A stretch of 64,000 nt of DNA from Escherichia coli. GTDB taxonomy: Bacteria > Pseudomonadota > Gammaproteobacteria > Enterobacterales > Enterobacteriaceae. The stretch lies in the NCBI RefSeq assembly GCF_044324785.1, contig NZ_CP172127.1. The stretch is one strand, 5' to 3'. Below, one piece after another: positions 13,105 through 16,950 of this stretch. Made by a program: the position numbers and the translations under genes. Numbering within the stretch: position 1 is the first letter of the stretch; every line of letters starts with the position of its first letter. The notes beneath the pieces were generated by a model that ran no database searches, was not told where the DNA came from, and saw only the letters and a list, made by a program, of their open reading frames with translations.

Positions 13105-13149
13105 TTCTTTCTCCTTTTTCAAAGCATAGCGGATTGTTTTCAAAGGTGG

Positions 13150-13219
13150 TGTAAATTTATTTATACATAAACAAGGGTTAAAAGCGCGAATAAATTGCTT
13201 ATGTAAAGAAAAATGTACG
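13150..13219 (+). promoter_or_regulatory. TyrR boxes in the aroF promoter region
   Basis: TGTAAATTTATTTATACA (13150-13167) and TGTAAAGAAAAATGTACG (13202-13219) match TGTAAA-N6-TTTACA. Confidence 0.8.
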
Positions 13220-13313
13220 AAATATGGATTGAAAACTTTACTTTATGTGTTATCGTTACGTCATCCTCGCTGAGGATCAACTATCGCAAACGAGCATAAA
13301 CAGGATCGCCATC

Positions 13314-14384
13314 ATGCAAAAAGACGCGCTGAATAACGTACATATTACCGACGAACAGGTTTTAATGACTCCGGAACAACTGAAGGCCGCTTTTCCATTA
13401 AGCCTGCAACAAGAAGCCCAGATTGCTGACTCGCGTAAAACCATTTCAGATATTATCGCCGGGCGCGATCCTCGTCTTCTGGTAGTATGTGGTCCTTGTT
13501 CCATTCATGATCCGGAAACTGCTCTGGAATATGCTCGTCGATTTAAAGCCCTTGCCGCAGAGGTCAGCGATAGCCTCTATCTGGTAATGCGCGTCTATTT
13601 TGAAAAACCCCGTACCACTGTCGGTTGGAAAGGGTTGATTAACGATCCCCATATGGATGGCTCTTTTGATGTAGAAGCCGGGCTGCAGATCGCGCGTAAA
13701 TTGCTGCTTGAGCTGGTGAATATGGGACTGCCACTGGCGACGGAAGCGTTAGATCCGAATAGCCCGCAATACCTGGGCGATCTGTTTAGCTGGTCAGCAA
13801 TTGGTGCTCGTACAACGGAATCGCAAACTCACCGTGAAATGGCCTCCGGGCTTTCCATGCCGGTTGGTTTTAAAAACGGCACCGACGGCAGTCTGGCAAC
13901 AGCAATTAACGCTATGCGCGCCGCCGCCCAGCCGCACCGTTTTGTTGGCATTAACCAGGCAGGGCAGGTGGCGTTGCTACAAACTCAGGGGAATCCGGAC
14001 GGGCATGTGATCCTGCGCGGTGGTAAAGCGCCGAACTATAGCCCTGCGGATGTTGCGCAATGTGAAAAAGAGATGGAACAGGCGGGACTGCGCCCGTCTC
14101 TGATGGTAGATTGCAGCCACGGTAATTCCAATAAAGATTATCGCCGTCAGCCTGCGGTGGCAGAGTCCGTGGTTGCTCAGATCAAAGATGGTAATCGCTC
14201 CATTATTGGTCTGATGATTGAAAGTAATATCCACGAAGGTAATCAGTCTTCCGAACAGCCGCGTAGCGAAATGAAATACGGCGTGTCTGTAACCGATGCC
14301 TGCATTAGTTGGGAAATGACCGATGCCTTGCTGCGTGAAATTCATCAGGATCTGAACGGGCAGCTGACGGCTCGCGTGGCTTAA
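13314..14384 (+). CDS. aroF: DAHP synthase, tyrosine-sensitive
   Basis: 356 aa [25 protein letters not shown]... Confidence 0.95.
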
Positions 14385-14394
14385 GAGGTTTATT

Positions 14395-15516
14395 ATGGTT
14401 GCTGAGTTGACCGCATTACGCGATCAAATTGATGAAGTCGATAAAGCGCTGCTGAATTTATTAGCGAAGCGTCTGGAACTGGTTGCTGAAGTGGGCGAGG
14501 TGAAAAGCCGCTTTGGACTGCCTATTTATGTTCCGGAGCGCGAGGCATCTATGCTGGCCTCGCGTCGTGCAGAGGCGGAAGCTCTGGGTGTACCGCCAGA
14601 TCTGATTGAGGATGTTTTGCGTCGGGTGATGCGTGAATCTTACTCCAGTGAAAACGACAAAGGATTTAAAACGCTTTGTCCGTCACTGCGTCCGGTGGTT
14701 ATCGTCGGTGGTGGCGGTCAGATGGGACGTCTGTTCGAGAAGATGCTGGCACTCTCGGGTTATCAGGTGCGGATTCTGGAGCAACATGACTGGGATCGAG
14801 CGGCTGATATTGTTTCCGATGCCGGAATGGTGATTGTTAGTGTGCCAATCCACGTTACTGAGCAAGTTATCGGCAAATTACCGCCTTTACCGAAAGATTG
14901 TATTCTGGTTGATCTGGCATCGGTGAAAAATGGACCGTTACAGGCCATGCTGGCGGCGCATGATGGTCCGGTGCTGGGGCTACACCCGATGTTCGGCCCG
15001 GACAGCGGTAGCCTGGCAAAGCAAGTTGTGGTCTGGTGTGATGGACGTAAGCCGGAAGCATACCAATGGTTTCTGGAGCAAATTCAGGTCTGGGGCGCTC
15101 GACTGCATCGTATTAGCGCTGTCGAGCACGATCAGAATATGGCGTTTATTCAGGCACTGCGCCACTTTGCTACTTTTGCTTATGGGCTGCACCTGGCAGA
15201 AGAAAATGTTCAGCTTGAGCAACTTCTGGCACTTTCTTCGCCGATTTACCGCCTTGAGCTGGCGATGGTCGGGCGACTGTTTGCTCAGGATCCGCAGCTT
15301 TATGCCGACATTATTATGTCGTCAGAGCGTAATCTGGCGTTAATCAAACGTTACTATAAGCGTTTCGGCGAGGCGATTGAGTTGCTGGAGCAGGGCGATA
15401 AGCAGGCGTTTATTGACAGTTTCCGCAAGGTGGAGCACTGGTTCGGCGATTACGCACAGCGTTTTCAGAGTGAAAGCCGCGTGTTATTGCGTCAGGCGAA
15501 TGACAGTCGCCAGTAA
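14395..15516 (+). CDS. tyrA: Chorismate mutase / prephenate dehydrogenase (T-protein)
   Basis: 373 aa, recognised sequence; 10 bp downstream of aroF. Confidence 0.95.
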
Positions 15517-15523
15517 TAATCCA

Positions 15524-15551
15524 GTGCCGGGTGGCGTGTTTCACCCGGCAC
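15524..15551. terminator. Bidirectional terminator between convergent tyrA and pheA
   Basis: GTGCCGGGTG...CACCCGGCAC inverted repeat. Confidence 0.75.
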
Positions 15552-15558
15552 GATTTCA

Positions 15559-16719
15559 TTATGCCGGATCGACTGGTACCACATTCTCGCTTGGGTAACA
15601 GCCCAGGACTTTCATCGAGCGAGTGATTTCACCTAGCTCTTTCAACGCCTGTTGCATTTCCGCTGATTCCAGATTGGCCTGAATATCCAGATAAAACATC
15701 TCTTCCCACGGGTTTCCGTGAATCGGGCGTGATTCCAGACGGGTCATAATCAGATTGTGGTTGCGCAGTACCAGCAACGCTTCAACCAGCGCACCAGCTT
15801 GTTGGCCGGTCGCCATTAACAACGTCGTTTTCGCCGGAACCTGGTCAGAAACGTTAATGGCTTTACGTGCCAACACCACAAATCGGGTGAAGTTTTGTCG
15901 CTGATTCGCTTCAATACGCTCCAGTACTTGCAAACCGTACAAAGTGCCGCCAGCTTCGCTTCCCAACGCAGCAATATGCGGTGATTTTGCCTGTGCAACC
16001 TTTTCCATTGCCGCAGACGTACTTTCGGTATATTCAATCTTCCAGTGCGGATAACGATTAAGGAATTTGCTGCATTGCTGGAATGGCTGCGGATGGCTGT
16101 AGACCGTATTAATGGTGGATAAATCAGTAGTGCCGGAGACCAACAAACAATGATCGATAGTTAACGTCATCTCGCCAACAATCGACAAACTGGTATGTTG
16201 CAGCAGATCGTAAACGTCGTTTATGGCACCGGAGCTGGTATTTTCAATCGGTACGACGGCATAGTCGGCCTGGCCGGTTTCCACCTGATTAAAAATATCG
16301 GCAAATTTGGCGCAGCCACTTTCAATGAATTGCTCAAAGTGACGGGCAGCGTACTGACGAGCGGCAAGATGTGAATAGGAGCCTTTGGGGCCGAGAAAAG
16401 CAATGCGGGCAGAGTGTGGATTAATTTTATTGAGATGTTGCTGGAGCAAAGCCTGCTGAGTTAATACGGAATCTTCAATGATGAGCTGGAACAGGCGAGT
16501 AATGTAATGGGCGTCCAGATGGTGCGCTTTACCGAGCGTAATTAATCTTTCCAGTAAATCGCGTTCACGATCAATATCACGTACCGGGCGATGCGAGAGC
16601 AGTTTGGCTTTTCCCACCTCGACGGCCAGTTCGCGCCGCTCTGCCAGTAATGCTAATAATTTTTCATCCAGCGCGCTGATTTTCTCACGCAGCGCCAGTA
16701 ACGGGTTTTCCGATGTCAT
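15559..16719 (-). CDS. pheA: Chorismate mutase / prephenate dehydratase (P-protein)
   Basis: 386 aa, recognised sequence. Confidence 0.95.
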
Positions 16720-16740
16720 AGTGTTGCCTTTTTTGTTATC

Positions 16741-16776
16741 AATAAAAAAGGCCCCCCGATTTGGGAGGCCTTATTG
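16741..16776 (-). promoter_or_regulatory. pheA transcription attenuator (terminator hairpin between pheL and pheA)
   Basis: Minus strand reads CAATAAGGCCTCCCAAATCGGGGGGCCTTTTTTATT. Confidence 0.85.
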
Positions 16777-16818
16777 TTCGTCTTCGCATTCTGTTTCACA
16801 CGACGAAACGCCTCCCAT

Positions 16819-16866
16819 TCAGGGGAAGGTAAAAAAGAATGCGAAGAAAAACGGTGTGTGTTTCAT
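16819..16866 (-). CDS. pheL: pheA leader peptide (15 aa, seven Phe codons)
   Basis: Minus strand ATGAAACACACACCGTTTTTCTTCGCATTCTTTTTTACCTTCCCCTGA = MKHTPFFFAFFFTFP*. Confidence 0.9.
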   Translation of the reverse strand: MKHTPFFFAFFFTFP

Positions 16867-16920
16867 GTTTGTTTCCTTAAGTGACTTCAGTACAGTACCC
16901 GTACTGTTTTCACGCTGTCA

Positions 16921-16950
16921 ACAAAAAACGCGCCCGAAGGCGCGTTGGCG
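16921..16950 (-). terminator. raiA terminator
   Basis: ACGCGCCCGAAGGCGCGT hairpin followed by a T-run on the minus strand. Confidence 0.7.

Follow-up and report, generated by a model that had tools for sequence, protein, structure and literature searches.

Control of the convergent aroF-tyrA and pheL-pheA operons in an Escherichia coli genome, and the hairpin between them

Two operons for aromatic amino acid biosynthesis that converge on each other raise the question of whether they share a control system or are each governed by their own, and of how their transcripts end where they meet. We analysed this question in a window of 64,000 nucleotides of Escherichia coli DNA (assembly GCF_044324785.1, contig NZ_CP172127.1). 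An original prediction, made from the sequence without database searches, had proposed that aroF-tyrA is controlled by TyrR boxes, that pheA is controlled by the pheL leader-peptide attenuator, and that a terminator acting in both directions is shared by the two operons.

Identity of the locus

We are highly confident that positions 13105-16950 of the window are the canonical E. coli aroF-tyrA/pheL-pheA locus, consisting of two convergent operons that are regulated differently. The gene order is the same in K-12 and in strain 06-00048, and the region is found, at 95-99% identity, in all but one of the complete E. coli genomes (5425 out of 5426). The genes and regulatory features are collected in Table 1. 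The gap from aroF to tyrA is 10 nt, and AroF is, after rounding, 100% identical to the K-12 protein. The tyrR gene itself is absent from the region examined.

The biology of this locus is already known, and the pairing of TyrR repressor control with pheL leader-peptide attenuation is a textbook case. As a classic teaching example, the locus carries little weight for discovery. Its main use here is as a calibration, in that the boxes, the leader and the hairpin were located to the exact base from raw sequence.

Table 1. Genes and regulatory features of the aroF-tyrA/pheL-pheA locus, in window coordinates
Feature	Position	Strand	Basis
TyrR box 3 (upstream), TGTAAATTTATTTATACA	13150-13167		1 mismatch to TGTAAA-N6-TTTACA
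TyrR box 2, TGTAAAGAAAAATGTACG	13202-13219		2 mismatches to TGTAAA-N6-TTTACA
TyrR box 1 (weak), TGGATTGAAAACTTTACT	13225-13242		4 mismatches; G-N14-C kept; overlaps -35 hexamer
aroF promoter: -35 TTGAAA (13229-13234), 16-nt spacer, -10 TATCGT	13229-13256	+	Promoter scan
aroF, Tyr-sensitive DAHP synthase	13314-14384	+	Pfam DAHP_synth_1, 338 bits; RefSeq annotation of matching E. coli DNA concurs
tyrA, chorismate mutase/prephenate dehydrogenase	14395-15516	+	Pfam CM_2, PDH_N, PDH_C; RefSeq annotation concurs
GC-rich hairpin (putative shared terminator), GTGCCGGGTG-N8-CACCCGGCAC	15524-15551		Folding; 10-11 pairs
pheA, chorismate mutase/prephenate dehydratase	15559-16719	-	Pfam CM_2, PDT; RefSeq annotation concurs
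Whole Phe leader RNA element	16742-16867	-	Rfam RF01859 (Phe_leader), 132.2 bits (gathering score 55), E = 1.5e-24, full model 1-125
Attenuator terminator (segments 3:4), AAGGCCUCCC-AAAUC-GGGGGGCCUU and a run of 6 U	16744-16772	-	Terminator scan; within Rfam match
Segment 2 core UGGGAGGC, antiterminator partner of the terminator 5′ arm	16810-16817	-	Masked-ribosome folding
pheL leader peptide MKHTPFFFAFFFTFP followed by stop, ends UUC_CCC_UGA	16819-16866	-	Translation; 7/15 codons Phe
Likely pheL-pheA promoter: -35 TTGACA (16921-16916), 18-nt spacer, -10 TACTGT (16897-16892)	16892-16921	-	Read from sequence

TyrR boxes upstream of aroF

The original prediction placed two TyrR boxes within 13150-13219, and a motif scan bore out their exact positions. 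It had overlooked a third, weak site at 13225-13242, which we take to be the one called box 1 in the K-12 literature. TyrR boxes are expected to have a G and a C spaced 14 bp apart (G-N14-C), and in all three boxes at aroF the sequence has the G at position 2 and the C at position 17. Box 1 spans the -35 hexamer of the aroF promoter, as would be expected for repression. This promoter is the sole sigma-70-like site returned by a scan of 12900-17400, and is identical in K-12. Counted from the aroF ATG, box 3 is at about -164 and box 2 at about -112, positions that are kept across many genera, and the centres of the two boxes are 52 bp apart. The fold of the whole aroF 5′ UTR has an ordinary stability (z = 0.59).

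One could argue that AT-rich promoter DNA would yield such matches by chance and that aroF-tyrA is regulated in some other way in this strain. The number of TyrR-like sites with at most 2 mismatches in the 64 kb is in fact no higher than expected (4 against 2.4, with 24 of 100 shuffles reaching 4), so that the motif count by itself shows no excess over chance, and one of these sites, with 1 mismatch and at 2039-2056, falls within coding sequence (a 553-aa ORF) and was rejected as a chance match. However, it is their arrangement that sets the aroF sites apart: two TyrR-like sites no more than 100 bp from each other arose in just 3 of 200 Markov-simulated windows. Moreover, in an alignment of 15 enterobacterial loci from different genera, the three sites stand at a constant distance from the aroF start, and only their half-sites are conserved, whereas the N6 spacers and the DNA between the boxes vary. 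Box 1 is almost invariant in this alignment, as seen in the stretch TGGATTGAAAnCTTTAC. Box 3, though its N6 spacer varies, is kept in loci that include those of Escherichia, Citrobacter, Enterobacter-like, Kluyvera and Pluralibacter. The same pattern is seen within the species, where the 12 substitutions that separate the window from K-12 in 13147-13208 all spare the half-sites. We thus regard a chance origin of the sites as extremely improbable.

The three G-N14-C boxes, the overlap with the -35 hexamer and the conserved half-sites therefore support the originally proposed control of aroF-tyrA by TyrR, as far as sequence can indicate it. The consensus TGTAAA-N6-TTTACA and a model of repression by a TyrR hexamer have been described (PMC10170061), and from this literature we infer binding of TyrR and its response to amino acids. 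The operon would be transcribed from the sigma-70 promoter TTGAAA-16-TATCGT and repressed by TyrR through the three boxes, of which boxes 1 and 2 adjoin, with box 1 on the -35 hexamer, while box 3 lies farther upstream by five helical turns. In the presence of tyrosine and ATP, TyrR would form a hexamer that bridges the boxes and so keeps RNA polymerase out.

The pheL leader and the control of pheA

The second operon is preceded by a sequence that matches the Phe_leader family over the full length of its model. The pheL reading frame has a ribosome-binding site, AAGGA, 7 nt 5′ of its AUG. The attenuator hairpin proper (16748-16772) has a folding energy of -19 kcal/mol (z = -4.49) and is followed by the U-run, with the AUG of pheA 28 nt further downstream. 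The likely promoter of pheL-pheA listed in Table 1 is not in the output of the promoter scan, whose -10 rule is stricter.

The original prediction had proposed folding the leader as a check, with an inability to form mutually exclusive hairpins speaking against attenuation. We modelled the ribosome as a mask with an assumed footprint of 13 nt, under equilibrium folding rather than co-transcriptional kinetics. With the ribosome at codons 5-11, the predicted minimum-energy fold has 9 antiterminator pairs and 0 terminator pairs. In the free RNA, or with the ribosome at the stop codon, it has 10 terminator pairs, and the terminator is also predicted again for ribosomes at codons 12-14. The modelled fold thus switches from terminator to antiterminator with the ribosome on Phe codons 6-11, so that the refuting outcome named in the original prediction did not arise, and the two structures are predicted to be mutually exclusive alternatives chosen by ribosome position. 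This modelled switch, together with the Rfam match, the seven Phe codons among 15 and the terminator with its U-run, argues for attenuator control of pheA by pheL, as had been proposed.

The mechanism of attenuation has been described for the enterobacterial group of Phe leaders ending in UUC_CCC_UGA, and derepression of pheA upon limitation of Phe-tRNA is known for K-12 (PMC3082878). In the window, plentiful Phe-tRNA would allow the ribosome to reach the UGA; the RNA would then fold into the 3:4 terminator, and transcription would end at the U-run, short of pheA. If Phe-tRNA is scarce, the ribosome would stall on the Phe codons and free UGGGAGGC, which would then form the antiterminator with the terminator's 5′ arm and allow pheA to be transcribed.

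We found no TyrR-like site, even with up to 4 mismatches, in the pheL promoter and leader (16720-17000). The two control logics are therefore truly distinct.

The hairpin between tyrA and pheA, and comparison with known systems

The stop codons of tyrA and pheA are separated by a gap of 42 nt, and 28 of these form a single hairpin. Folding gives it -22.2 kcal/mol as the + strand and -22.4 kcal/mol as the - strand. Both strands have z = -4.95, and none of 200 shuffles was as stable on either. Among six sequences from Escherichia and Citrobacter, 3 of the 11 hairpin pairs show compensatory changes. The flanks are less uniform. On the tyrA (+) side, the tail GATTTCATTA passes the terminator scan, whose T-tract rule asks for 5 T in 8 bases, marginally (GAUUUCAUUA on the tyrA strand is likewise marginal only). 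On the pheA (-) side, the tail TGGATTATTA failed the T-tract test, and the scan returned no - strand site. Thus, of the shared bidirectional terminator originally proposed, the hairpin is real, with a conserved position and compensatory changes, but the T-tract in the pheA direction fails.

The published 3′-end lists that we searched place nothing in this spacer. The eLife 2021 supplements, from Term-seq of K-12, give for this locus only a 3′ end inside the pheL leader and none between tyrA and pheA, although expression of these genes may be too weak in that data set, and the aroF-tyrA and pheL-pheA genes do not appear in the TERMITe supplements.

Nearly every short tyrA-pheA spacer that we examined in other Enterobacterales and in related gamma-proteobacteria has one strong hairpin, and outside Escherichia and Citrobacter this hairpin often stands between an A-run and a T-run. 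This canonical arrangement recurs at the same position in many genera, which points to termination as the function that has been conserved. Bidirectional intrinsic termination at 15524-15551 is plausible on sequence grounds, and we infer termination at the hairpin from the literature. Both operons would end at this one hairpin, which most likely sets the 3′ ends of both transcripts.

A possible reading, though on the unlikely side, is that the hairpin is a REP-like palindrome that serves mainly as a barrier to 3′-to-5′ exonucleases or as a pause element, and that termination, at least that of pheA, occurs through Rho or through collision of polymerases. The failure of UGGAUUAUUA, which comes after the hairpin in the pheA direction, to satisfy the T-tract rule is in line with this reading. 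So is the stem, GCCGG(A/G)TG...CA(T/C)CCGGC, since we take the REP stem to be similar to the GCCGGRTG stem of the window, and the Citrobacter versions (TGCCGGATAAGC...CCATCCGGCA) look still more REP-like. In addition, bidirectional terminators that are unlike the intrinsic type and do not need Rho have been reported between convergent E. coli genes (bioRxiv 10.1101/2022.10.23.513370), and for REPs located between convergent genes, a role both as terminators and as blocks to degradation has been put forward (bioRxiv 10.64898/2026.03.23.713779). However, the tyrA strand does pass the terminator scan, the stem is followed on its 3′ side by six T residues in E. albertii, the canonical A-run, hairpin and T-run recur in many other genera as noted above, and the K-12 annotation has no REP or other repeat feature at the site. 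The original K-12 study, by Hudson and Davidson in 1984, is also said to have described a shared terminator here.

We also considered, as a speculative idea that we think unlikely, that the Escherichia/Citrobacter lineage exchanged the canonical tyrA-pheA terminator of other Enterobacterales, with its A-run, hairpin and T-run, for a REP-like palindrome that has no U-tract in the pheA direction, and that the palindrome may also be a recombination junction. If so, pheA transcripts would end by a non-intrinsic route, for example polymerase collision or termination by Rho followed by trimming.

Separately, we observed that the hairpin loop and the 3′ end of pheA in the window belong to a rare allele, about 17% divergent, that is found in 26 of 5425 genomes. 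The boundary of the allele falls inside the hairpin or immediately upstream of it, and the allele keeps the stem through a compensatory change of G-C for A-T. Among the species in the matches listed, which contain no Salmonella, Shigella, E. fergusonii or E. marmotae, none came closer than 82% to the divergent segment at the pheA 3′ end as a possible donor. This rare divergent allele at the hairpin and pheA 3′ end is the mildly new part of the analysis, and only as a matter of population genetics.

Each element of the locus can be set against a known system. The aroF-tyrA operon agrees with that of K-12, a member of the TyrR regulon with boxes 1-3, in gene order, promoter hexamers and box 1. 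The two sequences are identical from 13209 to the aroF ATG and in the half-sites of boxes 2 and 3. They differ through the 12 substitutions mentioned above, of which one falls in each of the N6 spacers of boxes 2 and 3 and the others between or beside the boxes. The exact upstream allele of the window is present, at an identity of at least 99%, in 231 of 5425 genomes.

The leader shares with the RF01859 Phe_leader group (PMC3082878) the full-length match, the seven Phe codons, the UUC_CCC_UGA end and the alternative terminator and antiterminator. Residue 4 of PheL is Thr in the window and in strain 06-00048 but Ile in K-12, and the window has one extra A relative to K-12 at 16729, in the region of the pheA ribosome-binding site; both changes leave the pairing segments untouched.

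As for the hairpin, its flanking A- and T-runs are weak, unlike those of the canonical versions in Pantoea, Erwinia, Serratia, Yersinia and Photorhabdus. What it has in common with the bidirectional terminators of convergent genes, whether of the canonical A-run/hairpin/T-run type, of the E. coli SEnd-seq class or REP elements, is a single GC-rich, palindromic hairpin that takes up the gap separating the two stop codons.

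The aroF-tyrA operator

The stretch 13000-17000, whose features are collected in the table below, is present in 5425 of 5426 complete E. coli genomes at 95-99% identity (megablast), with 98.7% the highest identity to any of them, and the features annotated in the matching DNA are aroF, tyrA, pheA, a 'Phe leader region' and yfiL. Over another 24 kb of the window, the nearest complete genome reaches at most 98.9% identity, so the window derives from a member of the E. coli complex outside this set of genomes.

Features of the aroF-tyrA and pheA region
Feature	Position	Strand	Basis or remark
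yfiL	upstream of aroF, 209-bp gap	-	ORF listing and reading of 12800-17300
TyrR box 3	13150-13167		1 mismatch to consensus
TyrR box 2	13202-13219		2 mismatches
TyrR box 1	13225-13242		4 mismatches, G-N14-C retained
aroF promoter, TTGAAA-16-TATCGT	13229-13256	+	only sigma-70-like site found in region
aroF	13314-14384	+	ORF listing; Pfam DAHP_synth_1
tyrA	14395-15516	+	10 nt past aroF; Pfam CM_2 plus PDH_N/PDH_C
Spacer hairpin	15524-15551		7 nt from tyrA stop, 7 nt from pheA stop
pheA	15559-16719	-	42-nt gap from tyrA; Pfam CM_2 plus PDT
Phe_leader (RF01859) match	16742-16867	-	whole model
pheL	16819-16866	-	ORF listing and sequence reading
raiA	16970-17311	-	ORF listing and sequence reading

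In the published model of aroF-tyrA control, a tyrosine-induced TyrR hexamer blocks RNA polymerase, and the same source gives the TyrR consensus (PMC10170061). Scanning for TGTAAA-N6-TTTACA recovered both boxes named in the original prediction, boxes 2 and 3. Across the 64-kb window the motif is not enriched (four sites against 2.4 expected; 24 of 100 shuffles reach four). Of 200 Markov-simulated windows, 3 contained a pair of TyrR-like sites at most 100 bp apart. The boxes stand out from chance by their clustering and conservation, not by their window-wide count. Among the species-representative loci listed, boxes stand roughly 164 and 112 bp upstream of the aroF ATG in Escherichia, Citrobacter, Enterobacter-like, Kluyvera, Pluralibacter, Pseudescherichia, Siccibacter, Mangrovibacter and Rosenbergiella loci, and an alignment of 15 loci shows conservation of the half-sites TGTAA...TAC(R) but not of the N6 spacers or the inter-box DNA. 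The same alignment holds a third, nearly invariant element that the prediction had overlooked, TGGATTGAAAnCTTTAC, which covers the -35 hexamer of the aroF promoter and which we take to correspond to box 1 of the K-12 aroF operator.

Elsewhere in the window, the TyrR-like sequence TGTAAAGCTGACTTTGCA (2039-2056, one mismatch) lies within a 553-aa ORF (1119-2780, - strand) and is most likely a chance match. The 5′ end of the aroF 5′ UTR carries a small hairpin (AUCCUC-GCU-GAGGAU, 13263-13277, -6 kcal/mol) with the block CTATCGCAAACGAG (13281-13294) downstream of it; both show conservation across about 14 genera, and we know of no function assigned to either. The fold of the whole 5′ UTR is not unusually stable (z = 0.59). 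The allele upstream of aroF occurs at a minimum of 99% identity in 231 genomes and at 90-95% in 3499.

The pheL leader

The convergent pheA gene had been assigned to attenuation by the pheL leader peptide. The Rfam match to Phe_leader scores 132.2 bits (E = 1.5e-24; gathering score 55 bits), and the pheL product is MKHTPFFFAFFFTFP, with codons ending UUC_CCC_UGA, the conserved enterobacterial leader type (PMC3082878). The published attenuation model requires mutually exclusive hairpins among 1:2, 2:3 and 3:4, numbered by the paired leader segments (PMC3082878). We folded the leader after barring from pairing every base as far as 13 nt beyond the A-site codon; this treatment assumes a ribosome footprint and approximates folding as an equilibrium. 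Under this model the 10-pair terminator AAGGCCUCCC/GGGGGGCCUU belongs to the minimum-energy fold when the ribosome is absent, on codons 1-4 or on the stop codon, and is lost with the ribosome at codons 5-11, a range that includes Phe codons 6, 7, 8, 10 and 11; its 5′ arm then pairs with UGGGAGGC (16810-16817) in nine antiterminator pairs. For stalls at codons 12-14 the model again predicts the terminator, whose hairpin alone folds at -19 kcal/mol (z = -4.49). Because the fold switches with the modelled ribosome position, the leader RNA can, as modelled, form mutually exclusive hairpins, the very property whose failure had been proposed as counter-evidence. No TyrR-like site with four or fewer mismatches was found in 16720-17000, and this absence supports the view that two distinct control logics lie side by side.

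Term-seq places a strong 3′ end at K-12 2737663 (+), approximately 16803 (-) in the window, inside the pheL leader; it follows GUGUGAAACA, in the 1:2 hairpin and not at the attenuator U-run, and an adjoining position appears in a second table (PMC7815308 supplements). The sRNA RaiZ (b4805), from the raiA 3′ UTR, maps to 16923-17084 (-) by coordinate transfer from K-12, and the T-run of its terminator (16927-16946, -) abuts the pheL promoter -35 hexamer TTGACA (16921-16916).

The spacer between tyrA and pheA

The two operons were further predicted to share a bidirectional terminator. The hairpin GTGCCGGGTG-GCGTGTTT-CACCCGGCAC lies exactly at the predicted position, with energies of -22.2 (+) and -22.4 (-) kcal/mol, and on each strand none of 200 shuffles is as stable (z = -4.95). 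It passes a simple terminator scan on the + strand (tail GATTTCATTA) but fails it on the - strand (tail TGGATTATTA). Nearly all tyrA-pheA spacers of at most 150 nt among the loci listed contain one strong hairpin, and the hairpins of Pantoea, Erwinia, Serratia, Pectobacterium, Yersinia, Photorhabdus and Photobacterium have the canonical bidirectional form, with an A-run on one side and a T-run on the other. Comparison of six Escherichia and Citrobacter sequences reveals pair-keeping changes on both sides in 3 of the 11 stem pairs, one being 15531/15544, which is G-C in the window and A-T in K-12. This comparative evidence supports selection for the structure. Neither of the two Term-seq supplements searched lists a 3′ end in the spacer. 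The hairpin could instead be a REP-like exonuclease barrier or a pause site, with pheA ended by Rho or by collision, a reading that has literature support in general terms and that we consider possible though rather unlikely. That the hairpin may terminate transcription in both directions can reasonably be inferred.

Enterobacter-, Klebsiella-, Kluyvera-, Pluralibacter-, Pseudescherichia-, Siccibacter- and Mangrovibacter-type loci have a spacer of 930-1070 bp (loci L010, L018, L029, L045, L049, L054, L055, L057, L059, L072, L095, L098 and L110), and their two operons have no single common hairpin. All six such spacers checked (L029, L045, L054, L055, L072, L110) carry, on the same strand as tyrA, a gene for a protein of about 290 aa; its product in L055 matches Pfam SGL (SMP-30/gluconolactonase family, 272 bits).

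The window differs from K-12 at many closely spaced positions between 15531, which lies in the hairpin, and a point about 190 nt into the pheA 3′ end. The segment 15440-15640 occurs at 99% identity or more in 26 of 5425 genomes and at 80-90% in 5396; the rare allele (15531-15720) spans the hairpin loop plus the terminal ~190 nt of pheA. In the final 129 nt of that gene, the window is 83% identical to K-12 and 81% to E. albertii, whereas K-12 and E. albertii are 97% identical; over the final 210 nt, the closest sampled species among the loci listed reaches at most 82% identity to the window. In the PheA protein only the last residue changes, from T to A. The segment appears to have been imported by recombination from an unsampled lineage, and one of its boundaries seems to fall inside the hairpin or immediately upstream of it. 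Since the top match over the 4 kb is 98.7%, no single complete genome has both this allele and the one upstream of aroF.

Comparison with K-12

K-12 MG1655 and strain 06-00048 share the gene order of the window. Within 13147-13208, a 62-bp part of the aroF operator region, the window carries 12 substitutions relative to K-12, none of them in a half-site; boxes 2 and 3 differ in their spacers only, and the aroF promoter, box 1 and the aroF 5′ UTR are identical. The leader differs in one codon and in one A of the pheA ribosome-binding region, and PheL residue 4 is Thr in the window and in 06-00048 but Ile in K-12. All elements of the locus match their K-12 counterparts, and the original prediction correctly describes a textbook system that was already known.
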